From positions 58,156,001 through 58,220,000 of the forward strand of contig OZ024740.1 of the NCBI GenBank assembly GCA_964016885.1: DNA of 64,000 nt. Direction: 5' to 3'. A program made the translations under genes and the position numbers. A model generated the notes under the pieces. It was not told where the DNA came from. It saw only the letters and a list, made by a program, of their open reading frames with translations, and did no database searches. Of the stretch, positions 6,601-55,573 are shown one piece after another (within the stretch, counting starts at the first letter, position 1; every line of letters starts with the position of its first letter). Source of the DNA: Eledone cirrhosa (lineage: Eukaryota).

Positions 6601-6606
<6 letters not shown>

Positions 6607-7008
6607 TATTAAAAAAATAATGAATAAACAAAGAAACAGTTCCTTATATTAAACCAAACAAAATTCATTATTTTACGATCGTTTCTAGGATATATATGTG
6701 TTAGAATTGGTATGCATATTCTATAGATCTATGTACAATATTTATACAAACTATCAGAAGGAATATACATACCTTCACATATATATGCTGTCTTCAGAAA
6801 TAATCTAATTTCTGAAGACAGCATATATATGTGAAGGTATGTATATTCCCTCTGATAGTTTGTATAAATATTGTACATAGATCTATAGAATATGCATACC
6901 AATTCTAACACATATATATCCTAGAAACGATCGTAAAATAATGAATTTTGTTTGGTTTAATATAAGGAACTGTTTCTTTGTTTATTCATTATTTTTTTAA
7001 TAATTTAT
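6601..7008. repeat. ~200-bp-arm palindrome, PLE-type fold-back, with a hammerhead motif in each arm
   Basis: Arms 6601-6801 and 6808-7008 are reverse complements (one mismatch seen) around a 6-nt loop AATCTA. Confidence 0.95.
6808..6939 (+). ncRNA. Type-I hammerhead motif with ~105-nt stem II (mirror copy on - strand at 6670-6801)
   Basis: ATTT-CTGAAGA-[long hairpin: ATATATATGTG/CACATATATAT, GGTATGTATATTC/GAATATGCATACC]-GAAA-CGATCG-TA-AAAT. Confidence 0.65.
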
Positions 7009-10578: not shown

Positions 10579-10634
10579 TTTATGCTCTGATGAGTCCCAC
10601 TTATAGTGCGGATGAAACAATGTTAGCAAGTAAA
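10579..10634 (+). ncRNA. Minimal type-I hammerhead ribozyme
   Basis: TTTATGCT-CTGATGA-GTCC-CACTTATAGTGC-GGAT-GAAA-CAATG-TT-AGCA(AG)TAAA. Confidence 0.7.
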
Positions 10635-10810: not shown

Positions 10811-10812
<2 letters not shown>

Positions 10813-11231
10813 TTCGTTTCTGAATTTGTTTAGCAAGATTCTTTATCTGAAATCGTGTGTTGAAACCGATATTGTTATACTTTGGGAGGGTCATGCTGCC
10901 AATAAGAAACACACGCACCTGTTGCTTTCACTTCAATTTATTATAATAAATTTATAATAAATTTATAAATTTATAAATTTCTGGTTGGTTGGTTGGTTCC
11001 ACAACCAGATAGTTGTTTATACATAGTCATAGTTCTTTCGTCACACATTCTGTGACCTCTTCAGTGACTGGGGATTCCTTTCTTTGTTCTGTCCTACGCC
11101 ATTTTGTTTCTGTGTGTGTGTTGTGTGCTCAGTCTGTGCATGCGCCACATCCGGGTGTCTGTGTGTTTATGTTCATTTGAAAGCTGCTGGTGCGTGTGTT
11201 TCCTATTGGCAACATGACCCTCCCAAAGTAT

Positions 11232-11238
<7 letters not shown>
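10811..11238 (-). mobile_element. PLE family A pseudo-LTR plus ORF start, with short 5' inverted duplication
   Basis: Reverse complement of 12230-12566, continuing into [27 protein letters not shown] (homologous to the PLE-B N-terminus). HHR at 11025-11069. 11184-11238 is an inverted copy of 10870-10920. Confidence 0.85.
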
Positions 11239-11318
<80 letters not shown>

Positions 11319-11604
11319 CACACACATACACATATACAAGCACACACGCATACATACACATACATACATACATACAAATAAGTACACATAAACGCATATG
11401 CAAAAACAAGCACTCGTTCGCACTCATACATGTGTATAATATAATGGTAGTGGGACAAATTTTAAATTTTAAATTTTAAACTGGGCCTGATAGAGGATTA
11501 AAATAATTAATATCACTACTAAGTTATTAATATTATCATCAAGTAATTAATTACGATTTATTATTTACTATTTACCATTCACTATTCGTTACTTATCTTT
11601 TATC

Positions 11605-12129
11605 TATACAACCCCTAGAGGCGAACTAGCCTACAAGTTTAGAAGGGCCCTAAATAAACATAATCTCAATATTAAGATAGTAGAAAGACCAGGTACCTCC
11701 GTAAAAACACTTATTAGCAAGACATACCCGTTCCAAAGACCCTCATGTATAGATAAGAAATGTATAACCTGTAAAATAAGCCCCCATATTAACTGTAAAA
11801 CTAGAAATGTAGTGTATAGCATAAGATGTACAGAAGGACAATGTAGAAACAAAAATATAGTGTACATAGGTGAGACAGCTCGTAGTATAGGGGAACGAAT
11901 AAATGAACACTGGCGAGACCTCCAAGATAATAAAGAATCATCTGTGCTCTACCAACGTGCTAAGATAGAACACAGAGGTAGACTAGAGAACATAGAAATA
12001 AAAATAGAATCCACACACAGAAAAGACGCAATGTTTAGGCAAATTACAGAGGCAGTAAGCATAAAAGAATTAAAACCAAAATTAAATAGAAAATATGAGT
12101 GGAACAGCAACATCACAACTTACAATTAA
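11605..12129 (+). pseudogene. 5'-truncated PLE family A ORF: Cys-rich linker and GIY-YIG endonuclease
   Basis: Open frame ...KTLISKTYPFQRPSCIDKKCITC...CKTRNVVYSIRC...IVYIGETARSIGERINEH...RQITEAVSI...LNRKYEW*, with GIY-YIG motifs VVY/YIG and conserved R, E, N. Confidence 0.9.
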
Positions 12130-12356
12130 GGACAAAATGAAAACACACACAGGACAAAATGAAAACACACACACACATAGAACAAACAACCAACCAACAA
12201 TAAATAAATAAATAAACAAATAGATAAATGAACACAAACACACACAGACACCCGGATGTGGCGTATGCGCAAACTGAGCACACAACACACACACAGAAAC
12301 AAAATGGCGTAGGATAGAAGAAAGGAAAGGCACAGAAACAAAGGAAAGGAATACCC

Positions 12357-12401
12357 AGTCACTGAAGAGGTCACAGAGTGTGTGACGAAAGGACTATGAC
12401 T
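12357..12401 (+). ncRNA. Hammerhead motif in PLE-A pseudo-LTR (second copy 11025-11069, -)
   Basis: AGTCA-CTGAAGAG-GTCACA-GAGTG-TGTGAC-GAAA-GGAC-TA-TGACT. Confidence 0.75.
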
Positions 12402-12588
12402 ATATATAAACAACTATCTGGTTGTGGAACCAACCAACCAACCAGAAATTTATAAGTTTGTAGATTTGTAAATTTATAAATTTATAAATATATAATAAAC
12501 TGAAGTGAAAGCAACTGGTGCGTGTGTTTCTTATTGGCAACATGACCCTCCCAAAGTATAACAATATGTATATATATGTATATATATG

Positions 12589-12669
<81 letters not shown>

Positions 12670-12969
12670 GTATATATATGTATATATATATATATGTATA
12701 TATATGTATATATATATATATGTATGTATATATATATGTATATATATATGTATATATATATGTATATATATATGTATATATATATATATGTATATATATA
12801 TGTATATATATATGTATATATATATGTATATATATATGTATATATATATGTATATATATATATATATGTATATATATATGTATATATATATGTATATATA
12901 TATGTATATATATATGTATATATATATGTATATATATATATATGTATATATATATGTATATATATATAA

Positions 12970-14683
12970 TTAAGTTAAAGATGTACATCCATATATGTAT
13001 ATATATATGTATATATATATATATGTATATATATATGTATATATATATAATTAAGTTAAAGATGTACATCCATATATGTATACTGAAATACTAGTATGTA
13101 TATGAATACACACACGTATACATATGTAGATGTACCAAGTTTTTTCACTGGTCACTTTACTGTGAGTGGCCAGCTATTCCGTATGTAAACACACAGACAA
13201 ACCGGTTTTTAGAGTCATACTGGTTTTTGAGGAAACACCTTTCCTCTATTCTCCAGAAAGCCAGATACATCTTTAACTTAATTGTTTAAGCGTCAGTCAT
13301 ACAAAAGTGAGTTACAAATGAAACGAAATTTAATTTCGTTTCGTTATTTGTTTTTATCGTCTCCGTTGAACCGGTACTTACTCATACTCTATGCAAATTA
13401 GTCTGCCCACTACTAATTTTCATAGAAAAACCATATAACGATATGTGCTTTTACGATTCTCTAGAGAGGCCGGAAGATAGGTAAATATTGCTGATGAGTT
13501 GTAACAACAACGAAACTAGTTCAATATTCCTTGTCTGGCTTTCTGGAGAATAGAGGAAAGGTGTTTCCTCAAAAACCAGTATGACTCTAAAAACCGGTTT
13601 GTCTGTGTGTTTACATACAGAATAGCTGGCCACTCACAGTAAAGTGACCAGTGAAAAAACTTGGTACATCTACATATGTATACGTGTGTGTATTCATATA
13701 CATACTAGTATTTCAGTATACATATATGGATGTACATCTTTAACTTAATTGTTTAAGCGTCAGTCATACAAAAGTGAGTTACAAATGAAACGAAATTTAA
13801 TTTCGTTTCGTTATTTGTTTTTATCGTCTCCGTTGAACCGGTACTTACTCACACTCTATGCAAATTAGTATGCCCACTACTAATTTTCATAGAAAAAGCA
13901 TATAACGATATGTGCTTTTACGATTCTCTAGAGAGGCCGGAAGATAGGTAAATATTGCTGATGAGTTGTAACAACAACGAAACTAGTTCAATATTCCTTG
14001 TCTGGCTTTCTAGAGAATAGAGGAAAGGTGTTTCCTCAAAAACCAGTATGACTCTAAAAACCGGTTTGTCTGTGTGTTTACATACAGAATAGCTGGCCAC
14101 TCACAGTAAAGTGACCAGTGAAAAAACTTGGTACATCTACATATGTATACGTGTGTGTATTCATATACATACTAGTATTTCAGTATACATATATGGATGT
14201 ACATCTTTAACTTAATTGTTTAAGCGTCAGTCATACAAAAGTGAGTTACAAATGAAACAAAATTTAATTTCGTTTCGTTATTTGTTTTTATCGTCTCCGT
14301 TGAACCGGTACTTACTCACACTCTATGCAAATTAGTATGCCCACTACTAATTTTCATAGAAAAAGCATATAACGATATGTGCTTTTACGATTCTCTAGAG
14401 AGGCCGGAAGATAGGTAAATATTGCTGATGAGTTGTAACAACAACGAAACTAGTTCAATATTCCTTGTCTGGCTTTCTGGAGAATAGAGGAAAGGTGTTT
14501 CCTCAAAAACCAGTATGACTCTAAAAACCGGTTTGTCTGTGTGTTTACATACAGAATAGCTGGCCACTCACAGTAAAGTGACCAGTGAAAAAACTTGGTA
14601 CATCTACATATGTATACGTGTGTGTATTCATATACATACTAGTATTTCAGTATACATATATGGATGTACATCTTTAACTTAAT
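12970..14683 (+). mobile_element. Retrozyme-like repeat family R2: three 467-bp tandem units (13266-14683) preceded by an inverted partial unit (12970-13265)
   Basis: Near-identical units with period 467, one hammerhead per unit, no credible ORF. Confidence 0.85.
13484..13528 (+). ncRNA. Type-I hammerhead ribozyme (R2); identical copies at 13951-13995 and 14418-14462
   Basis: AATATTG-CTGATGA-GTTGT-AACA-ACAAC-GAAA-CTAG-TT-CAATATT: perfect 7-bp stem I, 5-bp stem II, palindromic stem III. Confidence 0.9.
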
Positions 14684-14864
14684 TATATATATATACATAT
14701 ATATATACATATATATATATATACATATATATATACATACATATATATATACATATATATATACATATATATATACATATATATATACATATATATATAC
14801 ATATATATATACATATATATATACATATATATATACATACATATATATATATACATATATATAC

Positions 14865-14895
<31 letters not shown>

Positions 14896-14969
14896 CATAT
14901 ATATACATATATACATATATATATATATATGTATATATATATGTATATATATATGTATATATATATATG

Positions 14970-15832: not shown

Positions 15833-18800
15833 TCAGCATGTACCCATGGGAGGTCGGGTACCCTGTATTACTGCGTGACGCCAGAAGTCACGGTCGTGTG
15901 TCATTGACTTTGAGAGGTGTAGTTGGGTAAGGTCGGCTTTTATCACCTCATCCCAAGTCATCTTGGGTCTCCCCACTCCGCGGTTTCCATCAACTTCTAG
16001 TGCTCTGCACCTTTTTATGCAGCTGTCATCCTTCATACGCATCACATGTCCATACCAGCGTAACCGCCTCTCCTGCACGCAGCATTTGATTCCTCTTATG
16101 CTCAGTCTCTCTCTCAATTCCTTTATGCTTTGTCGTTCACGTATATTACTGTTACACATCCATCGGAGCATGCAGGCTTCGTTTCTCTCTAATCTACGTA
16201 AGTCTTCCACCTTCAGCGCCCAGGTCTCACTACCATGCAACATCGCTGTTCGGATACACGCATCATACAGTCTGCCTTTCATTCTGAGGGAGAAGCCTTT
16301 TGCAGCTAGCAGTGGTAGTAGTTCCCTAAACTTCTTCCATCCCGTTCTTACCCTAGTTATTGTACTTTCTGAGCACCCACCTCCGTTGCTAATTCGGTCA
16401 CCTAGGTAGCAGAAGCTGTCTACTGTTTCTACAGGGCCCTCCCAGAGATTGGTGGTACTTGTTTCCTGTGGCTGTTTGCTTGCTGTTTCAGCACAGCTGC
16501 TGCATGTGAATCCTACATTCTTAATTAAGCTTCCTGAGATCCCGCTACATCTCTTGTGTACCCATTGTTTGCATTTGGGGCAGAGAATGGAGTTTCTACC
16601 TACACCTTTCCTACATACTGAGCAAGGCCATTTCCCTGAGGGGATCTGGGTTCTGTTTTCTCGTCTACTTACAAGGACCTTAGTCTTTGTCATGTTGACT
16701 TTGAGGCCCTTTCTCTCTAGTCCCTGCTTCCAGGTTTGGAATTTATTCTCTAGTTCTACCATAGATTCAGCTATGAGTGCGAGGTCATCAGCATACAGGA
16801 GTTCCCATGGGCATCCGGTCTTAAACTCCTCCGTTATTGCCTGCAGGACTATGATGAACAGGAGAGGGCTAAGAACAGAGCCCTGGTGGACCCCAACCTG
16901 TACGCTAAATTCCTCGCTATACTCATTGCCAATCCTAACTTTGCTGACTGCTCCCCTATACATGGCTTGTACCGCTTTCACAAGCCATTCATCTACTCCT
17001 AGTTTTCTAAGAGCCCACCAGATTACTGCACGTGGAACTCTGTCAAAGGCTTTCTCAAGGTCGACAAATGCCAAGTAGAGTGGCTTACTTTTAGCTAGGT
17101 ACTTTTCCTGTAATTGCCTCACAAGGAAGAGGGCATCAGTGGTGCCTTTCCCTGGTACAAACCCAAATTGCATCTCGTCTATATTCACCCGGTCCCTAAT
17201 CAGCTGTGCTATAACTCTTTCTGTTACTTTCATGACCTGGTCCATCAACTTTATACCTCTATAGTTTCCTCTATCTAGTGCATCGCCTTTACCTTTGTAG
17301 CAGTTGACAATGATGCTACTGCACCAATCTTTTGGTATGGCCCCCTCTAGTATTACCTGGTTAACGATACGTGTGGTTATAGTGTGACCTACAGACCCAG
17401 ATGCCTTCAGCATCTCGGCAGCTATACCCGATGGACCGGTTGCCTTCCCTATCTTCATATCTCTGATTGCCTTACTTACTACGCTGCCGCTGACTTGTAC
17501 TGCTGGTCCCTCTATAGGGTCTACGTGGGGTAGGGTCTCTTCTTCCCATGCATTCTCCTCATTTAGTAATCTATCATAATGACTCTTCCATGCATCTTTC
17601 TTCTCAGCACTTGTGAGGGCAAGCTCACCTTTATCATTCCGGATACACTTCTCTCCAATGACGTCACAACTATCTCTGACACACTGCCTCGCAATCTTGA
17701 ATACCTCCTGTTTCTGGTCCTCACGTTGTAAAACATGCTTGAATTTTCTATCCTCTGCTTCCCTCCTAGCTAAGTATACTTGTCGCCTAGCTTCCCTCTT
17801 GGTCTCTATGTAATGTACCCTGCTCCCCCCGTTCTTCCATTCTTTCCATGCCTGTCTCTTGGCCTTGACTGCTTCATCTACCTTATTGTTCCACCACCAA
17901 GTCACTCTCCTCCTGCTTGAGGTCTTACTCCAGCCACAAACCTCATCCGTCGCCTCTAGTAAGTTATTTTTTAGGAACTCCCAGTTCTCTTCTACGTTAA
18001 ATGTCTCTATCTGTTCTTCTTTACTGTCGTAGGCGTTGAGTAAAATACCTTTAAATCTGTTACTGGTTGAGGGGACTTTCAGCTTCCAGATCTTTCTTCT
18101 CCAGGTTGGCCTCTGTTTCAGGGCTCGTCTAGTTCTGACCGTGAGGTCGCTGACAACTAAGCTATGTTGGGATGTACATTCCTCACTAGGGAAGGCTTTT
18201 GTGTTTACGACCGTCCATCTGTCACGTCCTCTGATGAGGATAAAATCTAACTGACTAGAGTGCTCCCCTGATCTATAGGTGATCAGGTGGTTGTCGGGTT
18301 TTTTAAAGTTTGTGTTACATATCGACATGTCATTGGCGTCGCAGAATTCTAGAAGTCTGAATCCTTCCTCATTCCTTGTGCCAACTCCATGGCCTCCATG
18401 TACTCTATTGAAGCCGTCGCAGTGTTTACCTACGTGTCCGTTAAAATCTCCTGCAATGATTAGGAAGTCCTTGTCGTCTGTTAGAGCAGTAGTGTGTATT
18501 AGGGACTCGTAAAACCTATCCTTAAGTTCGTCTGGCAGCCCCGATTGGGGTGCGTAAGCTGATATTATTGTGGTAATTGTCTTATTCAGGACTAGTCTAA
18601 GTTTAATGATTCTTGCATTTACCCTGTACACTGAGATTACTTTATCTACCCACTTGTCAGCTAATAGTATACCTACACCACCCATCCCATCGTCATTTCC
18701 CACCCAGAAAAATTTGTAGCACTGGCTTTTTCCTACAAGGACTCTAGCAGACCCTCCTCTCCATCTAGTCTCTTGCACACTGCATACATCAACTTCCTTT

Positions 18801-18952
18801 CGCTCTAGCATTTCTACGATTTCTCCTGCTCTTCCTTTCATTGAGCCTACATTGATGGTACCAACTCGGAGTTTTGGGCATTTGTCGACACTCGTAGGGG
18901 AGGGTCTCTGGGTTGGCGCTTCACGTGGGTGCTTGGTAGCTCGCAGATTCAT
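15833..18952 (-). CDS. RTE LINE polyprotein: APE endonuclease, reverse transcriptase, C4HC3 PHD-like finger (1039 aa, intact)
   Basis: APE motifs GTINV, VQETRW, SAYAPQ, GDFNGH, LDFIL, SQH. RT motifs [40 protein letters not shown]-type C-terminus [11 protein letters not shown]...GRPKMTW. Confidence 0.97.
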   Translation of the reverse strand: MNLRATKHPREAPTQRPSPTSVDKCPKLRVGTINVGSMKGRAGEIVEMLERKEVDVCSVQETRWRGGSARVLVGKSQCYKFFWVGNDDGMGGVGILLADKWVDKVISVYRVNARIIKLRLVLNKTITTIISAYAPQSGLPDELKDRFYESLIHTTALTDDKDFLIIAGDFNGHVGKHCDGFNRVHGGHGVGTRNEEGFRLLEFCDANDMSICNTNFKKPDNHLITYRSGEHSSQLDFILIRGRDRWTVVNTKAFPSEECTSQHSLVVSDLTVRTRRALKQRPTWRRKIWKLKVPSTSNRFKGILLNAYDSKEEQIETFNVEENWEFLKNNLLEATDEVCGWSKTSSRRRVTWWWNNKVDEAVKAKRQAWKEWKNGGSRVHYIETKREARRQVYLARREAEDRKFKHVLQREDQKQEVFKIARQCVRDSCDVIGEKCIRNDKGELALTSAEKKDAWKSHYDRLLNEENAWEEETLPHVDPIEGPAVQVSGSVVSKAIRDMKIGKATGPSGIAAEMLKASGSVGHTITTRIVNQVILEGAIPKDWCSSIIVNCYKGKGDALDRGNYRGIKLMDQVMKVTERVIAQLIRDRVNIDEMQFGFVPGKGTTDALFLVRQLQEKYLAKSKPLYLAFVDLEKAFDRVPRAVIWWALRKLGVDEWLVKAVQAMYRGAVSKVRIGNEYSEEFSVQVGVHQGSVLSPLLFIIVLQAITEEFKTGCPWELLYADDLALIAESMVELENKFQTWKQGLERKGLKVNMTKTKVLVSRRENRTQIPSGKWPCSVCRKGVGRNSILCPKCKQWVHKRCSGISGSLIKNVGFTCSSCAETASKQPQETSTTNLWEGPVETVDSFCYLGDRISNGGGCSESTITRVRTGWKKFRELLPLLAAKGFSLRMKGRLYDACIRTAMLHGSETWALKVEDLRRLERNEACMLRWMCNSNIRERQSIKELRERLSIRGIKCCVQERRLRWYGHVMRMKDDSCIKRCRALEVDGNRGVGRPKMTWDEVIKADLTQLHLSKSMTHDRDFWRHAVIQGTRPPMGTC

Positions 18953-19192
18953 ATTTCATCTATTGATTCAGAGTTGCTCGTGTATTCCCAGCTCATCCAT
19001 CCATAACGGTGGGAAAATTGAGGGCTAGAAGAACAGTGGTGGTGGGGTAATGGCAGGGTGTGTTGGGATGCGCCAGAGGAGGAGAGAGTTAGTTAGGCAG
19101 GTAGTAGCAGCAGCAGTGGAAATGGCATGCTAGGTTTGATTGGTCGAATAGACTATGGTGGTGTGTGGGGGTGGGGGGAGGGAAATTGTGAG

Positions 19193-22100
19193 GTAGGAAC
19201 TGAGGGTCGCATGGTAAATATCCAAGTTAATAAGTTAATACTACATCAGTAAAATTAACAATAATAACGTCATGAAAAAAAAAAAAAAAAAAACTAAGAG
19301 AAACCCTAGAAAATTTATCGCTAATACAGCAGGGAAAATTTAACGCTAATACAGCAGGGAACATCATAATATTAACGACAATATGTAGGCTAAAATACCT
19401 TCGTAGATTAGATGGATGGCTGGAATAATTGGAGTCAGCTCTAGTGGTACATTTTAGCAGAGAAGAATGGGAAAGTATCTTATCTCTTCAATATTTTCAG
19501 ATTGAATGAATTAGGTTAAAGACAGGGTAGTAAGCCTTAAAGAAGTGCATAGAGAGGGGGGGGGGGTAGGAACTGAGGGTCGCATGGTAAATAACTGAGA
19601 GAGATACAATAGGATTAGAATACCGCATGGTAAATATCCAAGTTAATAAGTTAATACTACATCAGTAAAATTAACAATAATAACGTCATGAAAAAAACTA
19701 AGAGAAACCCTAGAAAATTTATCGCTAATACAGCAGGGAAAATTTAACGCTAATACAGCAGGGAACATCATAATATTAACGACAATATGTAGGCTAAAAT
19801 ACCTTCGTAGATTAGATGGATGGCTGGAATAATTGGAGTCAGCTCTAGTGGTACATTTTAGCAGAGAAGAATGGGAAAGTATCTTATCTCTTCAATATTT
19901 TCAGATTGAATGAATTAGGTTAAAGACAGGGTAGTAAGCCTTAAAGAAGTGCATAGAGAGGGGGGGGGTAGGAACTGAGGGTCGCATGGTAAATAACTGA
20001 GAGAGATACAATAGGATTAGAATACCGCATGGTAAATATCCAAGTTAATAAGTTAATACTACATCAGTAAAATTAACAATAATAACGTCATGAAAAAAAA
20101 AAAAAAAAAAAAACTAAGAGAAACCCTAGAAAATTTATCGCTAATACAGCAGGGAAAATTTAACGCTAATACAGCAGGGAACATCATAATATTAACGACA
20201 ATATGTAGGCTAAAATACCTTCGTAGATTAGATGGATGGCTGGAATAATTGGAGTCAGCTCTAGTGGTACATTTTAGCAGAGAAGAATGGGAAAGTATCT
20301 TATCTCTTCAATATTTTCAGATTGAATGAATTAGGTTAAAGACAGGGTAGTAAGCCTTAAAGAAGTGCATAGAGAGGGGGGGGGTGGGTTAGGAACTGAG
20401 GGTCGCATGGTAAATAACTGAGAGAGATACAATAGGATTAGAATACCGCATGGTAAATATCCAAGTTAATAAGTTAATACTACATCAGTAAAATTAACAA
20501 TAATAACGTCATGAAAAAAAAAAAAAAAAACTAAGAGAAACCCTAGAAAATTTATCGCTAATACAGCAGGGAAAATTTAACGCTAATACAGCAGGGAACA
20601 TCATAATATTAACGACAATATGTAGGCTAAAATACCTTCGTAGATTAGATGGATGGCTGGAATAATTGGAGTCAGCTCTAGTGGTACATTTTAGCAGAGA
20701 AGAATGGGAAAGTATCTTATCTCTTCAATATTTTCAGATTGAATGAATTAGGTTAAAGACAGGGTAGTAAGCCTTAAAGAAGTGCATAGAGAGGGGGGGG
20801 GGTAGGAACTGAGGGTCGCATGGTAAATAACTGAGAGAGATACAATAGGATTAGAATACCGCATGGTAAATATCCAAGTTAATAAGTTAATACTACATCA
20901 GTAAAATTAACAATAATAACGTCATGAAAAAAAAAAAAAAAAAAAAAAAAAAACTAAGAGAAACCCTAGAAAATTTATCGCTAATACAGCAGGGAAAATT
21001 TAACGCTAATACAGCAGGGAACATCATAATATTAACGACAATATGTAGGCTAAAATACCTTCGTAGATTAGATGGATGGCTGGAATAATTGGAGTCAGCT
21101 CTAGTGGTACATTTTAGCAGAGAAGAATGGGAAAGTATCTTATCTCTTCAATATTTTCAGATTGAATGAATTAGGTTAAAGACAGGGTAGTAAGCCTTAA
21201 AGAAGTGCATAGAGAGGGGGGGGGGGTAGGAACTGAGGGTCGCATGGTAAATAACTGAGAGAGATACAATAGGATTAGAATACCGCATGGTAAATATCCA
21301 AGTTAATAAGTTAATACTACATCAGTAAAATTAACAATAATAACGTCATGAAAAAAACTAAGAGAAACCCTAGAAAATTTATCGCTAATACAGCAGGGAA
21401 AATTTAACGCTAATACAGCAGGGAACATCATAATATTAACGACAATATGTAGGCTAAAATACCTTCGTAGATTAGATGGATGGCTGGAATAATTGGAGTC
21501 AGCTCTAGTGGTACATTTTAGCAGAGAAGAATGGGAAAGTATCTTATCTCTTCAATATTTTCAGATTGAATGAATTAGGTTAAAGACAGGGTAGTAAGCC
21601 TTAAAGAAGTGCATAGAGAGGGGGGGGGGGTAGGAACTGAGGGTCGCATGGTAAATAACTGAGAGAGATACAATAGGATTAGAATACCGCATGGTAAATA
21701 TCCAAGTTAATAAGTTAATACTACATCAGTAAAATTAACAATAATAACGTCATGAAAAAAACTAAGAGAAACCCTAGAAAATTTATCGCTAATACAGCAG
21801 GAAAATTTAACGCTAATACAGCAGGGAACATCATAATATTAACGACAATATGTAGGCTAAAATACCTTCGTAGATTAGATGGATGGCTGGAATAATTGGA
21901 GTCAGCTCTAGTGGTACATTTTAGCAGAGAAGAATGGGAAAGTATCTTATCTCTTCAATATTTTCAGATTGAATGAATTAGGTTAAAGACAGGGTAGTAA
22001 GCCTTAAAGAAGTGCATAGAGAGGGGGGGGTAGGAACTGAGGGTCGCATGGTAAATAACTGAGAGAGATACAATAGGATTAGAATACCGCATGGTAAATA

Positions 22101-24003
22101 TCCAAGTTAATAAGTTAATACTACATCAGTAAAATTAACAATAATAACGTCATGAAAAAAACTAAGAGAAACCCTAGAAAATTTATCGCTAATACAGCAG
22201 GGAAAATTTAACGCTAATACAGCAGGGAACATCATAATATAACGACAATATGTAGGCTAAAATACCTCGTAGATTAGATGGATGGCTGGAATAATTGGAG
22301 TCAGCTCTAGTGGTACATTTTAGCAGAGAAGAATGGAAAGTATCTTATCTCTTCAATATTTTCAGATTGAATGAATTAGGTTAAAGACAGGGTAGTAAGC
22401 CTTAAAGAAGTGCATAGAGAGGGGGGGTAGGAACTGAGGGTCGCATGGTAAATATCCAAGTTAATAAGTTAATACTACATCAGTAAAATTAACAATAATA
22501 ACGTCATGAAAAAAACTAAGAGAAACCCTAGAAAATTTATCGCTAATACAGCAGGGAAAATTTAACGCTAATACAGCAGGGAACATCATAATATTAACGA
22601 CAATATGTAGGCTAAAATACCTTCGTAGATTAGATGGATGGCTGGAATAATTGGAGTCAGCTCTAGTGGTACATTTTAGCAGAGAAGAATGGGAAAGTAT
22701 CTTATCTCTTCAATATTTTCAGATTGAATGAATTAGGTTAAAGACAGGGTAGTAAGCCTTAAAGAAGTGCATAGAGAGGGGGGGGGGGGGGGGGTAGGAA
22801 CTGAGGGTCGCATGGTAAATAACTGAGAGAGATACAATAGGATTAGAATACCGCATGGTAAATATCCAAGTTAATAAGTTAATACTACATCAGTAAAATT
22901 AACAATAATAACGTCATGAAAAAAACTAAGAGAAACCCTAGAAAATTTATCGCTAATACAGCAGGGAAAATTTAACGCTAATACAGCAGGGAACATCATA
23001 ATATTAACGACAATATGTAGGCTAAAATACCTTCGTAGATTAGATGGATGGCTGGAATAATTGGAGTCAGCTCTAGTGGTACATTTTAGCAGAGAAGAAT
23101 GGGAAAGTATCTTATCTCTTCAATATTTTCAGATTGAATGAATTAGGTTAAAGACAGGGTAGTAAGCCTTAAAGAAGTGCATAGAGAGGGGGGGTAGGAA
23201 CTGAGGGTCGCATGGTAAATATCCAAGTTAATAAGTTAATACTACATCAGTAAAATTAACAATAATAACGTCATGAAAAAAACTAAGAGAAACCCTAGAA
23301 AATTTATCGCTAATACAGCAGGGAAAATTTAACGCTAATACAGCAGGGAACATCATAATATTAACGACAATATGTAGGCTAAAATACCTTCGTAGATTAG
23401 ATGGATGGCTGGAATAATTGGAGTCAGCTCTAGTGGTACATTTTAGCAGAGAAGAATGGGAAAGTATCTTATCTCTTCAATATTTTCAGATTGAATGAAT
23501 TAGGTTAAAGACAGGGTAGTAAGCCTTAAAGAAGTGCATAGAGAGGGGGGGGGGGGGTAGGAACTGAGGGTCGCATGGTAAATAACTGAGAGAGATACAA
23601 TAGGATTAGAATACCGCATGGTAAATATCCAAGTTAATAAGTTAATACTACATCAGTAAAATTAACAATAATAACGTCATGAAAAAAACTAAGAGAAACC
23701 CTAGAAAATTTATCGCTAATACAGCAGGGAAAATTTAACGCTAATACAGCAGGGAACATCATAATATTAACGACAATATGTAGGCTAAAATACCTTCGTA
23801 GATTAGATGGATGGCTGGAATAATTGGAGTCAGCTCTAGTGGTACATTTTAGCAGAGAAGAATGGGAAAGTATCTTATCTCTTCAATATTTTCAGATTGA
23901 ATGAATTAGGTTAAAGACAGGGTAGTAAGCCTTAAAGAAGTGCATAGAGAGGGGGGGTAGGAACTGAGGGTCGCATGGTAAATATCCAAGTTAATAAGTT
24001 AAT
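19193..24003 (-). repeat. Tandem array of 12 full plus 1 partial ~360-425-bp monomers at the 5' end of RTE-A
   Basis: TAGGAACTGAGGGTCGCATGG recurs at about 19193, 19566, 19968, 20390, 20802, 21226, 21630, 22030, 22427, 22794, 23194, 23557 and 23957. Units differ mainly by poly-A/poly-G length and a ~40-bp indel. Confidence 0.97.
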
Positions 24004-28199: not shown

Positions 28200-28201
<2 letters not shown>

Positions 28202-29326
28202 AGTTAAAAATGTACATCCACATATGTATACTGAAATATTAGTATGCATATGAATACACACACGTGTACATATGTAGATGTACCGAGTTTTTCACTGGAC
28301 ACTTTACTGTGAGTGTTCAGCTATTCTGTATGTAAACACACAGACAAACCGGTTTTTAGAGTCATACTGGTTTTCGAGGAAACACCTTTCCTCTACTCTG
28401 CAGAAAGCCAGACAGGAATATTGGAGTAGTTTCGATGTTGTTACATCTCATCAGCAATATTTACCTATCCTCCGGCCTTTCTAGAGAATCGTAAAAGCAC
28501 ATATCGTTATATGCTTTTTCTATGAAAATTAGTAGTGGGCAGACTAATTTGCATAGAGTGTGAGTACGTACCGGTTCAGCGGAGACGATAAAAACAAATA
28601 ACGAAACGAAGTTAAATTTCGTTTCGTTTGTAACTCACTTTTGTATGACTGACGCTTAAACAATTAAGTTTAAAATGTACATCCACATATGTATACTGAA
28701 ATACTAGTATGCATATCACGCTCTATGCAAATTAGTCTGCCCACTACTAATTTTCATAGAAAAAGCATATAACGATACGTGCTTTTACGATTCTCTAGAA
28801 AGGCCGGAGGATAGGTAAATATTGCTGATGAGATGTAACAACATCGAAACTTGTCCAATATTCCTGTCTGGCTTTCTGCAGAATAGAGGAAAGGGGTTTC
28901 CTCGAAAAGCAGTACGACTCTAAAAACCGGTTTGTCTGTGTGTTTACATACAGAATAGCTGAACACTCACAGTAAAGTGTCCAGTGAAAAACTCGGTACA
29001 TCTACATATGTACACGTGTGTGTATTCATATGCATACTAATATTTCAGTATACATATGTGGATGGACATTTTTAACTTAATTGTTTAAGCGTCAGTCATA
29101 CAAAAGTGAGTTACAAACGAAACAAAATTTAATTTCGTTTCGTTATTTGTTTTTATCGTCTCCGTTGAACCGGTACTTACTCACACTCTATGCAAATTAG
29201 TCTGCCCACTACTAATTTTCATAGAAAAAGCATATAACGATATGTGCTTTTACGATTCTCTAGAGAGGCCGGAAGATAGGTAAATATTGCTGATGAGTTG
29301 TAACAACAACAAAACTAGTTCAATAT
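28200..29326. mobile_element. Second R2 locus: one unit on - (28200-28716) head-to-head with ~1.3 units on + (28717-29326)
   Basis: Diverged homologue of 13266-14683. HHRs at 28417-28461 (-), 28818-28862 (+) and 29283-29326 (+, GAAA mutated to AAAA). Confidence 0.85.
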
Positions 29327-46289: not shown

Positions 46290-46876
46290 GTAGCGGCGAT
46301 GAATTAGTTTTGCGAGGTTTTTTATATGAAATCGTGTGTCGAAACAGATATTGTTATATTTGGGGAGGGTCATGTTTGCGTAATATTGCCAGAATTAATA
46401 ACAGAACACACTCACTGTTTGGTTGGTTTTCGCTTCTCGCTGTCTTTTATATATATATATCTGCGATCTAACTTACTCGGTCCTCAATGTTGCCATTGAC
46501 TGACCGGCGGTCAAAAATAATACAGATACAATATAGACACAAACACATATATATAGTTTACATAATTTACATAAATCTTTCGTTGCACATCTGCAACATC
46601 GTCAGTGGTGTTATATTCATTGTTCCTCCTGTTGTGTTGTATGTCTACGCCATTTTTTTTTTTGTTCAGTCTGTCTATATATTTATTTATTTATTTGCTT
46701 GTTTGTTTATCTTATTTTATTTTGTCTTCTTTGCGCATGCGTTTGCGTGTGTGTATAGTGTTATGTGTGATGTGTGACTAGTGTGTATAGTGTTGTGTCT
46801 GCTGGGTGACTAGTGTGTGTTTATGTGCTTGTGTATGTATTTATTTATCTTATTTTATTTAATTTTATTTACTTAT

Positions 46877-47080
46877 TTATACTTCTCTTAGGTCAGTGTT
46901 GTTTGTTTGGGTGTTGTTGTTGTTCCACTCATTCTTTCTGTTTAGCTTTGGTCTTCTAATTTCTATTTCACTGGCCTCTCTGATTTGCCTATCTGCTGGG
47001 TCATTCCTATGTTTAGATATTATTCTAATTTCTATGTTGTCTATGTTACCGTCATGTTGTTGTCTAGCATGTTCGTATAG
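46877..47080 (-). pseudogene. C-terminal remnant of PLE-B GIY-YIG endonuclease (out of frame after internal deletion)
   Basis: LYEHARQQHDGNIDNIEIRIISKHRNDPADRQIREASEIEIRRPKLNRKNEW aligns with the PLE-A C-terminus. Confidence 0.85.
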
Positions 47081-48828
47081 GTTTTGCTGATCAGGGATTT
47101 TATGGTGGTTCCTGGCTTTTCTACCACCTTTATTTTTAAGTGGGTCTTTCTCAGGGCCTTTCTACACTGGTTAGCTAATTTCCCACCAGGGGTGGCGTCC
47201 ACAAACATGACACTCTGATATCTCTGGTTGTCGTACCATGATGTGGCCTTCCCTATCTTATGTCTAGCCCTATCTAAGCTATTCCATGATTTGCTCCTGT
47301 ATAGTGGGCAAATTCCTTTCATGTCCAGTTCTATGAGGGTCTTATACTTTTCCATGGCTCCTTCGTATACTCTGACTCTGTCTCTTTGGTTGTAGCCAGA
47401 GAACTGCATGCGGTTGATGAAGTGTTGGATGTGTCCTTCCATTTCTGTTGGGTCGCACATGCTGGACACATTCTTCATCACTCGTACCAAATCTGCGATC
47501 AGAATATTAAACTTAGCACTACTGGACATTGCTGAGTTTTTGAGTATCAGGTATTTGGAGGCCATGGGTTTAGCATAGTGTGAGTGGAGAATTTGGGCTC
47601 TCTCGTCTATAGTGTTAATCCAGAGTTCTGTGTCTAATACAGGTAGTCTATTGTTAGGGTGTTTGGAAGGGAAGTCTATAGTTACAGTTATACTCTGGTG
47701 TATGGAATTAGCTATCTGCTGGATGCTTTCCATCGTGCTACGTTCTAAATCAAACTTGTTAGTGCTCTCTAGTGGGGGTGTTCTTATAACTATATTGATA
47801 TCGTCTACATAACGAGAGTACATGATGAGGTCTATGGAGCTTTCATTAAGGAGATCTTTAAGTCTCCTTTCCCACCATACCATGAAAAGGTTGGCAACAT
47901 CACCAGCTATGCTGACGCCGATGGCTGCTCCCTCATTTTGGGTGTAGATTTTCTCATTGAACTTAAATATGTGGCCCTTTAGGGTAGTTTTGATACTAGC
48001 CCCTATTGCATGTGCGACCATTTTTCTTACCTGATCAGTGTTTTGGGGGGTCCGTATAGCTTTGGTCCACCCAATCCACCTTCCTATGGGAGTCTTTTTA
48101 GCCATTGAGGTTATGGTGGGGGGTCTACCTCTTATAGGTCTACTAGGGCAGAAACATCTAAGGTCATGGCTGTCTAGGTAGTCAGTGTCGTAGGTAAGTC
48201 TAAGTAGGAGGCCCAGTTTGTCTGTGTCGACGTCGCAGAACTCCACCTCACTCTCAATGATCATCTCCACACATCTTTTCACAGCAAAATCAATGTTAAT
48301 GGATGGGTACAGTGACACCACATCCATGCTGCCTATTATGCAGTTGGATAGGCTCCTGTTTTTGTTGCACTCACTGATTCCGCTGAGGAGGTCCTCTGTA
48401 CTTTCACATACATCTGGGGACATCTTGATTATGGGGCGTATAACCATTGAGAGGAAGTAGGAGATCCTGTAGTTGCTAGCTATATTAGCTCCGCATACGG
48501 GTCTTGTTGGTGGTCCTGTTGTCGGGTCGTCGACTGTCTTGTGGTCTTTGCGGAGCCCATACAAGGGTGGTATGCCATTGTTAGACGCCTGGAAGTTGTT
48601 GGCAGTGCGTCTGCTTGGCTTTAGGATGTCAGTCCACATCATCATGTGAGCGTTGAGGATTTTTTCTCTCCCATCGTGTGTTAGTTGTGCAACTTCGCTC
48701 GTGTTGGTGATGTGGGGTTGCATTGCCTCGATGTAGTTCGGCATGCTATCTATTGACATCCTACCAGACTTATCTGTGGGTAGACACACTACCTCACCAT
48801 CCCTTGTGCGCTGCTTGAGGCTAACCAA
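47041..48828 (-). pseudogene. PLE-B reverse transcriptase domain (frameshifted from the N-terminal ORF)
   Basis: PLE RT motifs PTDKSG, LYGLRKDHK, RPVC, SMDVVSLYPSI, YTQNEGAAIG, YSRYVDD, LPVLD, HYAKP. Confidence 0.92.
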
Positions 48829-50284
48829 GCCTTCTACAGGTTTTATCCAGTTGTTGGGCCTCTGGTCTGCTCTGTCTCATAGTGTACCTGTCTACTACTT
48901 GTCTAATCTTATTTCTAGCTATGGTGAACTGTGCCTCCGTCTCGTCATCTATTTGCTGTGGTATGCAAACTCTTTTATTAAAGGGTAACCTCGTAGGATA
49001 GATATTACCCATCTTATATGTTTTGTCAGCTGGGTTGAAAAATAGTTTCTCTAAGGGGTTGTCGTTATTTCTATCGTCATAGTTGTGTGTGTTGCTATTA
49101 TTGTTATCATGGTGGTTGTTGTTGTTTCTATCATTAGCATTAATATTATTATTGTTATGATTGCTAGATGTATTGTTGTTTACTTCACCGTTATTGTTGT
49201 TGTTGTTACTGCTATTTCTACCATTGTGGTTGTTACTATTATTATGTTTCTTGTTTTTCTTGATGTTGCTACATGTACTATTTCCATTATTACCACTGTG
49301 GCTATTGTTGTTGTTGTTGTTCGTATTGTTACCGTTATTACTACTGTGGTCACTGTTGCTGTGTCTGTGGTTAACGTTTCTATTATTATTATTATTGTGG
49401 TTGTTGTTGTTCTGTCTATCGCTAGTATTATTGCCATTATCACTATTTCTCACTTTCCTGCCATTGTTATGGTTATGGCTGTTATTTCTATACCCAGAGT
49501 TATTGTTTATATTACTACTACCGTTATTATTGTTGTTGTTGTTTACCTTTGCATTCCAACGTATTTTTGTGAAACACTTTTCCAGCTCCGTTTTGCATTC
49601 CATAGGGTTAATCTTTTTGTAGATGGCAAATTTTGGTGGTAACTTTAGGATTTGTTGTTCTTGTTCACTGATTAAAGTGTTCCCATAGATATTTACTGTG
49701 TGGTCATTGATAAATTCTTCCGGTAGTTTTACATCACTCATATGGATGTTGTCGATGTTATCTGGGTATTTTTGAGAATATTCGATTTTCCTTTCTTGTA
49801 GTTTTTTCTTATTCATCCATTCTAATTTCTTCTTGAAATACCTACAGCATTCGTTTTGAGCATATTTCGTTTCGCGTCGGATGACGCTCATGAAGTCATC
49901 TCTCTCGTTTGCTGTGATGAGATTTCGGATTTCCTTACCGTTGATGCGTTTTTGTCTGTAGAGTGCGTTGACTTTTGTGTATGTTGTTCTTTTCATATTA
50001 ACTGTTATTGTGTGTTTTAGCCGTTCAGCTTGTGTTTTGTTCAATAATAAATTATTTACTTGTTTTGATATGTTTGTTGTGTATGTTTTGGAGGAAACAC
50101 AGTGTTTTAAGAAGCGGATTTGTTCTGTTGTTATTGTAGTTTTTATATAACAGAAAACAGTGTCTTTCAATAACCTTTCAGCTTGGCACAAGCTAATGCC
50201 ATAGCGGCGATGAATTAGTTTTGCGAGGTTTTTTATATGAAATCGTGTGTCGAAACAGATATTGTTATATTTGGGGAGGGTCAT
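48821..50284 (-). pseudogene. PLE-B N-terminal region with ~160-codon Asn-rich tract
   Basis: The start is duplicated in the pseudo-LTR. LKLPPKFAI motif is typical of the PLE pre-RT region. Frameshift(s) near 48830-48870. Confidence 0.85.
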
Positions 50285-50576
50285 ATTTGCGTAATATTGC
50301 CAGAATTAATAACAGAACACACTCACTGTTTGGTTGGTTTTCGCTTCTCGCTGTCTTTTATATATATATATCTGCGATCTAACTTACTCGGTCCTCAATG
50401 TTGCCATTGACTGACCGGCGGTCAAAAATAATACAGATACAATATAGACACAAACACATATATATAGTTTACATAATTTACATAAATCTTTCGTTGCACA
50501 TCTGCAACATCGTCAGTGGTGTTATATTCATTGTTCCTCCTGTTGTGTTGTATGTCTACGCCATTTTTTTTTTGTT

Positions 50577-53500
50577 CATCATCATCATCGTTTAACGTCC
50601 GTGTTCCACGCTTACATGTGTTTGGACGGGGGTTTTCCCACTTGAGGCAAGAGTGATTGTCTTGCTCGCATAGGATGTCTGGCGGGTTTTTTTACTGCTG
50701 GATGCCCTTCCTAACACCAACCACATTTACAGTGTGGGTCTGGGAGGTTTTTACCGTGTTGCCTACACGGCCACATTACAGCGTGGACTGTGTTGTTTTT
50801 GTCGTGACCCCTACACGATCTCATTTGTTTCGGCCTGGATGTTGTGGGACCAACATAACTTTACATTAAAAGGGTCGGGGTGGTGGGACGGGGGTGTATT
50901 TTGTTAGAGATGCCTACTGACTGTAGTAGGTTTTACTTTGTATTTAGGTAAGGCGGGTCTTCTCTATTACTGAGTACCGCCAAAGGTCTCGGTCCAGTGA
51001 CATTGTCTTGGAGAGGTGTAAGTGTGTGAGGTCGGAATTTATCAGCTCGTCCCAGGTTTTTCTGGGTCTGCCTACTCCATAGCTACCGTCTATCTTTATT
51101 GCCCTGCACTTTGTTATACAGCTGTCGTCTTTCATGCGCATCACGTGACCATACCAACGTAGCCTTCTCTCGAGTAAACAACATCTGATCCCTCTTATTT
51201 CTAATTTTTTCCTTAGTTCGCTTATGCTTTGCCGTTCACGTATGTTACTATTACACATCCAGCCGAGCATGCAAGCTTCGTTCCTCTCTAGTCTGCGTAT
51301 ATCCTCTGCACACAATGCCCAGGTCTCACTGCCATGCAACATTGCTGTTCGTATGCAGGCATCATACAACCTGCCTTTCATTTTTAGGGAGAACCCTTTA
51401 GTGGCTAATAGTGGTATAAGCTCTCTGAACTTTTTCCATCTAGTTCTGACTCTAGCTACTGTACTTTCAGAGCACCCTCCCCCACTGCTGATTTTGTCAC
51501 CCAGGTAACGGAAGCTGTCCACTATTTCTATAGAACCCTCTGCGCAATTGAAAGAGCTAGTATTTTGTGGGCACTTGCTTCTACTTATTGCACCAGAGCA
51601 CCGGCCACATGTAAAATCTATGTTCTTAGTTAGCTTACCTGTGATCCCACTACATCTTTTATGCACCCATACTTTGCATTTGGGACATAAAATGGAGTTT
51701 CTACCTACGCCTTTCCTACACACTGAGCATGGCCATTTCCCGGAAGGGACCGTCGCCTTATTTTCTTTCCTACAAACTAGAACTTTAGTCTTAGCCAGGT
51801 TAATTTTAAGCCCTTTTGATTCTAGGCCATGCTTCCATGTTTGGAATTTCTTCTCTAGCTCGGCCATTGATTCAGCTATGAGCGTTAGATCATCTGCGTA
51901 TAGGAGTTCCCATGGGCAGCCGGTCTTGAACTCCACTGTTATAGCCTGAAGGGCAATAATAAATAGTAGGGGGCTAAGAACAGAGCCCTAATGTACAAAA
52001 ACTTTTACACTACACTCTTCACTATATTCGTTGTTAATTCTAACCTTGCTGACTGTTTCTTTATACATGGCTTGTATAGCTCTCACAAGCCATTCGTCAA
52101 CACCTAGTTTTCTAAGAGCCCACCAGATAATGGAACGGGGGACTCTGTCGAAGGCTTTCTCCAAGTCAACAAACGCTAAGTATAGGGGTTTACTTTTAGC
52201 TAGGTACTTCTCCTGTAGTTGTCGTACAATGAAAAGAGCGTCTGTGGTACTTTTGCCTGACACAAAACCGAACTGCATTTCATCTAGATCAATTCTCTCT
52301 CTGATTAGTTGCGCTATTACTTTTTCCGTGACCTTCATGACCTGGTCGATTAATTTAATGCCTCTATAGTTACTCCTATCTAAAGCATCTCCTTTACCCT
52401 TGTAACAGTTAACGATAGTTTTCTCTACTTCCCCCATCCCACCATACTTTCCAAGCCTGCTTTTTGGCCTTAATTGACTCCTCCACCTTACTGTTCCACC
52501 ACCATGTTACTCTCCTCCTACCTACAGGCCTGCTCCAGCCACAGACTTCGTCTGCCGCCGTCAGCAGGTTTCCTTTCAGGAATTCCCACTGTTCCTCTAT
52601 ATTATCTGACTCTAATTGCTCTTCCTTACTGTCGAAAGCATCAAGTAACATGATTTGGAATTTATTTCTGGCTGTGGGGTCCTTTAACTTCCATATTTTT
52701 CTCCTGAGGATAGTCCTCTTCTGTTGTCTAGTACGTCTCGTCCTGACTATTAGGTCGCTAATTAGTAGTCTATGTTGGGAGGTGCATTCTTCATGGGGGA
52801 GGGATTTAGTGTTTACAACAGACACTCTGTCACGTCCTCTGGTAAGGATATAATCTACCTGGCTGGTATGTTCCCCCGATCTGTAGGTGATCAAGTGATT
52901 GTCTCGTTTTTTGAAGTTAGTGTTACAGATAGTTAGGTTATTTGCATCACAGAATTCCAGGATTCTGGAGCCTTCCTCATTTCTAGTACCAAACCCATAG
53001 CCTCCGTGGATTCCGTCATAGCCGTCATAATGTTGACCAACGTGGCCATTTAGGTCGCCTGCAATAATTATATAGTCAGTGTCGGTTATTTGGGAGGTAG
53101 TGAGCATCAGTGTCTCATAGAATCTGTCTTTTATAGCGCCAGGGAGTCCGGATTGAGGCGCGTATGCCGATATTACTGTCACAGTAGTTCTATTTAGAAC
53201 AAGTCTTATTTTAATTATTCTGTCATTTACTCTATTTACATCTATTATCTTATCCACCCATTTTTCTGCTAACATAATTCCTACCCCACCTATGCCATTG
53301 TCATTTCCCACCCAGAAGAGCTTATAGCAACGTTTTTTACCCACAATGAATCTAGCAGACCCGCCCCACCACCTGATCTCTTGAATACAGCAAACATCAA
53401 CCTCCTTATGTTCAAGCATTTTTACAACCTCGTTAGAGCGGCCTTTTAAGGTGCCTACATTTATGGTACCAACTCTGAAGTTTTGGATTGTGTTTGGAGG

Positions 53501-54016
53501 ATGGGTGAGGGGGATGGGGTTGGGGTTATGGTGGCCATCCACGGCCGAAACAAAGAGGAGGGGGACTTGCCCTTTCGTCCGGCAGCATGAGGTGAATTTG
53601 TCGTTATCTTTGGCATTGTCGTCGTGTGCAGATTCTTCAGACTCTTCAGAAATTCCTTAGTCCATCCATCATATCGAAAAGCAGCCAGAAGTGATAGCAT
53701 AGGCTGTTGACTTGTGATTGGTCCAAATAATAAGGTGGAGAGTGGGGACGGGAGGGAGGGGTATCGGGTAGTTAGCAAAGTGGGGTAGTTAAAAATATAG
53801 TTAAAAATACAAGAAGATTATTTAGAAACAACCAGACAAAATTATAGAATAGAATAAATATGAATGAATGAACCGATAGGCTGGAGAGAGATCAGAAAAA
53901 TGGCATTTACATTATAATTCGCAGGAACGAGGTCTCACCATTTTTGAGCGTTGACAAATTCTGGGATTCTTACCTCGCTACAGGTTTATTTATATTTGGA
54001 GAGAGAGAAGGGGGAA

Positions 54017-54017
<1 letters not shown>
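50577..54017 (-). mobile_element. Near full-length but defective RTE family B copy (APE 52409-53542; RT in pieces 50944-52437)
   Basis: APE and RT motifs are present. There is a ~0.5-kb internal deletion at ~52415 relative to 55574-57968, a stop at ~51988 and a frameshift at ~51935. The 5' UTR runs to 54017. Confidence 0.93.
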
Positions 54018-54078
<61 letters not shown>

Positions 54079-54095
54079 GTATATATATACATATG

Positions 54096-54130
<35 letters not shown>

Positions 54131-54162
54131 GTATATATGTATATATATATATATGTATATAT

Positions 54163-55256
54163 ATGTAAGTATGTATGTATACGTACATACATATATGTAT
54201 ACAGACGTACAGTAGCATGCATATATATATATATATAGAGAGACTGAGCATAAGAGGAATCAAATGCTGCGTGCAGGAGAGGCGGTTACGCTGGTATGGA
54301 CATGTGATGCGTATGAAGGATGACAGCTGCATAAAAAGGTGCAGAGCACTAGAAGTTGATGGAAACCGCGGAGTGGGGAGACCCAAGATGACTTGGGATG
54401 AGGTGATAAAAGCCGACCTTACCCAACTACACCTCTCAAAGAGAATGACACACGACCGTGACTTCTGGCGTCACGCAGTAATACAGGCTACCCGACCTCC
54501 TATGGGTACATGCTGAAGCATATAAACAATATGCCCCCACTCCCCCCACCGCAAGGTGGTCGTGGAGGTGCCACGGCAAAAAAGCACCCAGCCCACACTG
54601 TAAAGTGGACGTGTAGGCGCCACGAAAAAGCACCCAGCACTCACTGTAAATGAGGTTGGTGTTAGGAAGGGCATCCAGCTGTAGAAATCAAGCCAGATCA
54701 GTTCCTGTATGAGCAAGGCATGGTCAGCCGACCAGACACTGCCCACAACAGGACAACCCGTCTAACCCATGCTAGCGTGGAAGAACGGACGTAAAACGGT
54801 GATGATGATGATGATGATGATATATACATACAGGTACACATACATATATGTACGTATCAGTTTAGCGGATGCTTATTATAACGCCCGCTTTGTTAGTTTG
54901 TAAACAAACTGAACAGCCTGAATTTATGCCGTATGGTGTTAAGGCAACCACGTCACCTTTTTGTTCAACACTGACACAGGAACGATGTACTAGTTTCAAG
55001 CTTGTTAGCTATCATCAGCACCATAAACCCTTCTGCCAGATGGTTGAACGTTCGAAAGTATATACTTTCCTTATGAAAATTAACGGCTGAGCAGCCTAAT
55101 TTGCATATCGAGTGAGTTCGACCAGGCGTACCGAGAACGATAAGTTGTAATAAAATGAAAACAAAATTTCATTTCTCACTCTTAGTACGGCACTTACTTA
55201 AATGTAAGTATGTATGTATACGTACATACATATATGTATACAGACGTACAGTAGCA

Positions 55257-55304
<48 letters not shown>

Positions 55305-55345: not shown

Positions 55346-55382
55346 CTTATTATAACGCCCGCTTTATATATATATATATATA

Positions 55383-55532: not shown

Positions 55533-55536
<4 letters not shown>
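55383..55536. repeat. Nested palindrome around a CTGATGAAGG core fragment
   Basis: 55383-55427 is the reverse complement of 55454-55499, with an extra partial arm between. Confidence 0.85.

Positions 55537-55573
<37 letters not shown>

Follow-up and report, generated by a model that had tools for sequence, protein, structure and literature searches.

The tandem repeat at positions 13266-14684 of the window (the whole 64-kb stretch of DNA that was analysed) is likely a single young insertion of a non-coding, hammerhead-bearing retroelement, and we consider, with a probability of roughly three in four, that this element is an animal non-LTR retrozyme, copied by the reverse transcriptase (RT) and the GIY-YIG endonuclease of a Penelope-like element (PLE). 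The lack of an open reading frame (ORF), together with a self-pairing far stronger than that of the local pLTRs, fits a retrozyme, likely one mobilised by a PLE, and the two apparent TA-joined 3' ends, the inverted arms and the (TA)n context are marks of PLE insertion, common to two PLE remnants located nearby. PLE mobilisation, twin priming and the form of the template are what we infer from the sequence.

The array, its hammerheads and the predicted fold

The direct array and its hammerheads are the following:

13266-14684, plus strand: direct array, three units of 467 bp (13266-13732, 13733-14199 and 14200-14666) followed by 18 nt, non-coding
13484-13528, plus strand: type I hammerhead of unit 1, cut predicted after 13521 (GUU)
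13951-13995, plus strand: type I hammerhead of unit 2, cut predicted after 13988
14418-14462, plus strand: type I hammerhead of unit 3, cut predicted after 14455

TRF reports a period of 467 bp, 3.0 copies and 99% matches over 13266-14684, the units differ pairwise at 4, 4 and 2 of 467 positions, and the same 18-mer opens and closes the array, which amounts to 3.04 units; the three near-identical units and the nearly equal starting and ending phase announced by the preliminary description are thus borne out. The unit has a G+C content of 162/467 (35%), its longest stop-free stretch in six frames is 60 codons, the longest reading frame close to its 3' end is 39 codons, and neither the unit nor the arms described below contain an ORF with RT and GIY-YIG domains, as an autonomous PLE would. 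All three units have T54, differing in this from 98.8% of the depth of sequencing run X1, which points to one recent source for the units. A138, a derived base, is found only in units 2 and 3 (C in unit 1, in all three copies of a second locus and in a contig of run X4). The exact 467-bp period runs without a scar across the three cut sites, and the tandem arrangement is a trait of the family, since the two loci, the two subfamilies and the contigs of X1 and X4 all have the same head-to-tail joint.

An intact hammerhead core (CUGAUGA, a stem II of 5 bp with a 4-nt loop, and GAAA) is present in all three units, beginning at 13491, 13958 and 14425, and GAAA is followed by ACUAGU and then by the GUU triplet after which the cut is predicted; stem I has 7 bp and extends into a long rod. 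The Rfam family HH9 matches the three units with 37.7 bits (E 1.9e-6), short of the 52 set for this family as gathering score, and no Rfam match within the 64-kb window attains gathering level. The textbook triplets of hammerheads are GUC and GUA, and GUU is a weaker one. Hence, of the "textbook type-I" hammerhead claimed for each unit, the type I core stands in all three and the triplet does not, and the cut position proposed after 13521 agrees with the modelled hammerhead fold. The 4-nt CTAG stem III had to be corrected, since the palindrome is actually ACUAGU, forming one or two pairs and a small palindromic loop. Forcing helix III to close in a monomer changes the predicted energy from -6.0 to +0.1 kcal/mol (a cost of 6.1 kcal/mol), and the strand-swapped hammerhead dimer is the predicted cofold minimum (-16.6 kcal/mol), so that the dimer-type hammerhead suggested earlier gains support from these predicted folds. 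A palindromic helix III and a favoured dimer fold would fit the dimer model described for metazoan hammerheads in the accessible text of PMC4209133. Predicted dimers are not always cut: the available part of a 2026 preprint (bioRxiv 10.64898/2026.07.22.740005) reports cleavage in one of the nine predicted Xenopus dimers tested, the other eight being uncut.

As a 467-nt circle, the unit is predicted to fold with -151 kcal/mol (z -8.8) and 67% of its bases paired, leaving the hammerhead free to form, and the linear unit has a predicted z of -10.1 against shuffled sequences. For comparison with the -8.8 of the unit, two local pLTRs have z values of -1.2 and -1.8, and a 404-bp repeat has +1.2. The sense strand, which carries the hammerhead, folds better than the antisense strand by 23.8 kcal/mol (null 3.4 +/- 6.1). 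The antisense strand is also folding well (z -6.5), and part of the fold signal is therefore plain palindromy. Subfamily changes break pairs outside the hammerhead in 4 of 16 cases, against 6.9 expected (P 0.06); covariation beyond stem II is not significant, and selection on the fold there is suggestive at most (P 0.06-0.08).

Ends, flanks and a second locus

Besides the direct array, the insertion (locus 1) and a second locus in the window are made of the following features:

12564-13048, no strand assigned: left microsatellite flank, either target or target plus co-inserted tail
12968-13001, minus strand: 34-bp stub of the 3' end, product of an 81-bp duplication
13049-13265, minus strand: inverted 5'-truncated arm of 217 bp, unit positions 269-467/1-18, from the inverted-repeat listing
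14685-14925, plus strand: (TA)nCA tract, oriented oppositely to the (TA)nTG microsatellite around it
28200-28716, minus strand: inverted arm of locus 2, subfamily B, unit positions 431-467/1-467/1-15, ending in (TA)n at the phase of locus 1
28716-29326, plus strand: direct arm of locus 2, unit positions 117-467/1-262, with its end 6 nt beyond the cut site

The preliminary description had the array embedded in (TA)n, which is correct for the whole structure; the left side of the array itself adjoins the inverted copy and the stub. The inverted arm has one mismatch in 217 with units 1 and 3, and its outer end and the right end of the array share one base and phase, 229 nt downstream of the cut. 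The stub goes back to the left junction having been duplicated in tandem (12910-13001 = 12991-13082). Past both 3' ends the flanks, read outward, are identical over 55 nt (that is, inverted), and a match of at least 50 nt was reached from only 2 start points among the 270 local ones and from 3 among the 3183 of the whole window, the observed pair being counted in both. Over about 240 nt, the flank on the right has an orientation inverse to that of the sequence around it, and the (TA)nCA tract likely belongs to the insertion event. As for a target-site duplication, which in animal retrozymes would exceed 4 bp where present, both flanks consist of microsatellite and correspond to each other as inverted rather than direct sequence.

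The copies at locus 2 are 92-94% identical to the focal unit, except for the last part, which is 98% identical. Subfamily B is defined by 16 substitutions and 2 deletions common to both arms of this locus, including a compensatory change in stem II (U-A to A-U) and a C at the cut position. The direct arm belongs to subfamily B up to about 29070 and to subfamily A in its last, hammerhead-bearing part, where the marks of subfamily B are missing, which places a B-to-A switch between unit positions 6 and 201. Both stem II changes also occur in X1 and X4 contigs (27-36% of the X1 depth), and the C at the cut position accounts for 2% of the X1 depth, all of X4 and none of X5. The subfamily A hammerhead that closes this locus is likely inactive, its GAAA having undergone a G-to-A change at a CpG (29311); each of the two subfamily B hammerhead copies has a private helix III change.

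Across these two genomic loci (the only ones read), three of the four outer ends are joined to (TA)n at unit phase 15-18, and the fourth (29326) lies at neither of the common sites; the context is (TA)n or AT-rich at all four. The inner ends vary (unit positions 1, 269, 117 and 431), and both loci have an inverted 5'-truncated head. The nearly equal start and end phase of the array, which had been taken as a signature of mechanism, loses this meaning with the inner ends of locus 2 (117 and 431), and would be met by chance in about 8% of cases. Fixed ends, proposed earlier as the mark of a DNA satellite, were the wrong yardstick, since fixed 3' ends are expected of a PLE-type insertion.

One unit was also compared with four sequencing runs (X1, X4, X5 and X21). 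In X1, 1176 contigs match the unit with a very high summed depth, which is consistent with a high-copy family, and X4 and X5 have 3 and 9 matching contigs, respectively, at low depth in both; X21, a raw-read run, placed 0 of 12.8 million reads on the unit and carries no test. Among the 10 of 46 loose ends listed for X1, a junction to TA is seen in four contigs at 13755 and in five at 13824. The former, 5 nt off the end seen in the window, is probably an alignment run-on. The latter suggests a second TA-joined end at phase 92, about 303 nt past the cut, in five contigs of this one run among the ends listed. The two ends are spaced by 74 nt, compared with 30-40 nt in described PLE tails and 58 nt in a local PLE remnant. 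No strand change was found among the joints listed for X1, X4 and X5 contigs. In the search of sequencing runs, 20 of the 24 rows listed contain part of the unit, 10 of these with at least half of the words; no RNA source figures among the rows listed, a result that carries no weight as to expression. Pattern scans for the element gave no match in the metagenome, genome and viral contigs searched. Two further readings of the contigs were set aside: an intron (a 91-nt GT..AG skip in one X1 contig, with a depth of 18.6 and a 20-nt side) is too thin, and horizontal transfer, as an explanation of the matches across runs, would rest on the 3 and 9 low-depth contigs of X4 and X5.

These data also bear on whether the array could be a DNA satellite or a MITE-like palindromic repeat, expanded by unequal crossing-over or slippage around a chance or relic hammerhead, or else a fold-back artefact of the assembly. 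Many of its hairpins are palindromic on both strands, terminal inverted repeats are present, and the 81-bp duplication and the shared A138 are local events at the DNA level. Nevertheless, we regard this explanation as very improbable, given that short arrays are dispersed over two loci, which differ in their inner ends but agree in the outer one, that the core is intact with covariation in stem II, and that folding is strand-asymmetric; a private base in the inverted arm and an arm/array junction that is not the centre of a palindrome further speak against a fold-back artefact.

PLE machinery and the form of the template

The window is AT-rich, with many (TA)n tracts and retroelements. A 5'-truncated PLE (10812-12567) has an inverted pLTR head, two different 3' ends in (TA)n, an open stretch of 192 codons with a GIY-YIG domain (PF01541, 11551-12129) and hammerheads at 11064 (minus strand) and 12362 (plus strand); its ends, both joined to (TA)n, reach 25 and 83 nt into the beginning of the ORF. 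Just upstream, at 10587-10620, there is an isolated hammerhead-like core whose stems I and III are unconvincing in the fold. A nearly full PLE (46291-50578, minus strand) has 377-nt pLTRs with 1 mismatch, an asparagine-rich insert, a frameshift near 48850, an endonuclease core missing near 47050 and an RT whose best match is an Octopus vulgaris protein (70% identity), from which the host is probably an octopod. The RT domain PF00078 falls below the cut-off in the PLE remnants of the window, which end about 200-310 nt after their hammerheads, one of them with an inverted 5' arm. Other retroelements include an open LINE ORF of 1040 codons (15833-18955, minus strand; AP endonuclease, RT and a PHD-like finger), which we take to be RTE-like, with more copies at about 50900-57600. 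The 404-bp tandem repeat (19208-23984, about 12 copies) lacks a hammerhead motif, and its RNA is no more structured than expected (z +1.15). Long palindromes, possibly inverted PLE-type or MITE insertions, lie at 6601-7008 (98.5% perfect over 408 bp and beginning at a (TA)n tract), 2720-2909, 55387-55496 and 62566-63489, and an identical inverted pair about 1.8 kb apart (59670-59742 and 61558-61630) has a weak CUGAUGA...GAAA motif.

The similarity of the unit to both PLEs of the window is limited to TA-rich matches, and, as the unit is not homologous to them, neither is shown to be its partner. In another explanation, some autonomous PLE not seen here would have the unit simply as its pLTR, made up of the 3' end and the beginning of the ORF, and the array would represent a run of 5'-truncated copies or the local expansion of one, with no life of its own. 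The distance from hammerhead to end is as in the local pLTRs, and in two X1 contigs the unit breaks off at 13823, a single base short of the second TA-joined end, and is followed by non-TA sequence that could be an ORF; in addition, according to the available text of bioRxiv 10.64898/2026.07.22.740005, 24 out of 57 retrozyme families of Xenopus had Repbase matches, to 22 elements of which 21 are PLEs. Against this, the unit is far more structured than the local pLTRs and its hammerhead is of a different type: the local PLE hammerheads have a 6-bp stem II, unlike the canonical-type 5 bp of the unit, and the traits of the minimal PLE hammerhead (a long helix II, a short helix I and an unpaired base between 9 and 10.1, as given in the accessible text of PMC4209133) are absent from the unit, with its 5-bp helix II, 7-bp helix I and no extra base. 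A further objection is the exact head-to-tail junction, found again in each locus and subfamily and in contigs of X1 and X4. Compared with 120 PLE-like proteins, the unit gave nothing under E 0.3 in blastx and the loose-end peptide did not match the N-termini; a relic ORF start resembling PLE N-termini was likewise discarded, 204 of 500 shuffles scoring as high in a comparison of low power with a weak positive control. We find the pLTR explanation unlikely.

Returning to a PLE-mobilised retrozyme, the insertion mechanism that we propose would start with arrays transcribed as multimers. According to the predicted fold, the ACUAGU palindrome would bring two hammerheads together for a slow cut at GUU, in such a way that unit-length or circular RNA may form and uncut multimers may persist. 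Both strands of (TA)n would then be cleaved by the PLE endonuclease and cDNA synthesis be primed from each 3' end, by analogy with the accessible account of PMC11167929; the start would lie either inside the unit, some 229 nt (alternatively some 303 nt) downstream of the cut site, or a little further on, within a microsatellite tail. The head-to-head joining of two 5'-truncated cDNAs would leave a long direct arm and a short inverted one. According to the available parts of PMC8557442, PMC3846280 and PMC8969392, endonuclease-bearing PLEs form partial tandems next to an inverted copy truncated at its 5' end, may carry a 3' tail and have (TA)n as target, and for an anole PLE in vitro, PMC11167929 (same limitation) reports internal RT starts at two sites, AT-rich targets, cutting and extension of both strands, no need for hammerhead cleavage, and uncut RNA as the main substrate.

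The preliminary description saw in the array the product of rolling reverse transcription around a circular RNA, and of this the retroelement, with an internal RT start, stands as opposed to a DNA satellite; the rolling circle is not established. In the circular variant of the preferred reading, which concerns the same element, hammerhead-cut monomers would be ligated to a 467-nt circle, the PLE RT would be primed at unit position 18 and go three rounds, and the inverted arm and symmetric flank would come from later fold-back or DNA-level copying. This route is the published hypothesis for retrozymes (PMC7229834 and PMC4209133, in the text available), and circular RNAs have been shown for the retrozymes of coral, mussel and axolotl (PMC7229834, likewise). 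The scar-free period, the predicted circular fold with its unblocked hammerhead and the T54 shared by the units, as from one recent source, all agree with it. However, a circle cannot carry a flank, and the same 55-nt flank lies at both ends of locus 1; the right flank is, moreover, inverted for about 240 nt. The presence of A138 in units 2 and 3 only (a single site, which could reflect later unequal exchange) and the preference of the anole PLE for uncut RNA in vitro are also against it. The symmetric flank, the shared A138 and the A/B mosaic of locus 2 sit badly with one target-primed circle, which is thereby weakened as the template of locus 1, although we still give it a substantial, if lesser, chance. 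An uncut linear multimer fits the array, the scar-free period and the fold equally well; the flank symmetry could be explained by fold-back copying of one junction, and the sharing of A138 and the mosaic by later exchange or conversion. For locus 1 we lean slightly away from a single circle and towards an uncut linear read-through RNA or, alternatively, one junction being copied at the DNA level.

More tentatively, and with appreciable doubt on our side, the family as a whole might spread not via a circle but via uncut read-through multimers that carry the (TA)nCA tail of the donor site and are primed twice by the PLE. If so, a complete array, an inverted head and new microsatellite would arrive together with every insertion, the arrays of retrozymes would be concatemers that are passed on as such and would form one source of the TA tracts, very long in this genome, and the circular life cycle proposed for animal retrozymes would be overturned.

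Comparison with known systems

The retrozyme kind and the rolling-circle idea are already known. Animal non-LTR retrozymes, as portrayed in the accessible parts of PMC7229834 and bioRxiv 10.64898/2026.07.22.740005, are, like the element studied here, non-coding, low-GC, self-paired tandem units with a type I hammerhead each, usually in dimers or trimers and in genomes which also contain PLEs. Several of the features by which they are recognised are found in the unit, which is a tandem of a few hundred bp with a hammerhead in at least two consecutive units, non-coding with a GC content below 50%, and predicted to give a self-paired RNA. Its length of 467 bp is just over the 150-450 bp given in PMC7229834 and within the 51-972 bp of the 2026 preprint (both from the available text). 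The main-text descriptions of animal retrozymes seen in these sources are without an inverted head, fixed internal 3' ends, microsatellite tails or a cephalopod example. We found no cephalopod retrozyme in the literature, whose supplements may hold one, and the terms ribozyme, hammerhead and retrozyme are absent from the main text of an annotation of Octopus vulgaris repeats from 2026.

The insertions of endonuclease-bearing PLEs (PMC8557442, PMC3846280 and PMC11167929, as far as their text was accessible) share with the focal element the partial tandem, the inverted 5'-truncated head, apparently the two alternative 3' ends downstream of the hammerhead, and the AT-rich or (TA)n targets; the focal element differs in having no ORF, three complete units, a canonical hammerhead and ends 74 nt apart. 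The MRC1-like elements that depend on Chlamys (PMC8557442, available part) are likewise non-autonomous PLE dependants inserted in multiple head-to-tail copies, but they are algal and resemble the 3' end of their partner, and the Chlamys PLE group is reported there without canonical hammerheads. The satellite 2 hammerhead repeats of newt and axolotl, as presented in the accessible text of PMC7229834, have a similar weak helix III with a palindromic loop and are better cleaved as dimers; unlike the unit, they are about 330-350 bp long, with proven expression and circles.

Animal non-LTR retrozymes have been argued to be non-autonomous PLE derivatives (bioRxiv 10.64898/2026.07.22.740005, in the text available), the link between both having been drawn from co-occurrence and pLTR homology (PMC7229834 and the same preprint, with the same restriction). 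To this link, the locus studied here adds evidence at the level of the insertion for the use of PLE machinery by a retrozyme, and it offers a way to decide between circle and linear multimer from sequence, since donor-array tails and unit variants should be inherited if the template is linear and not if it is circular.
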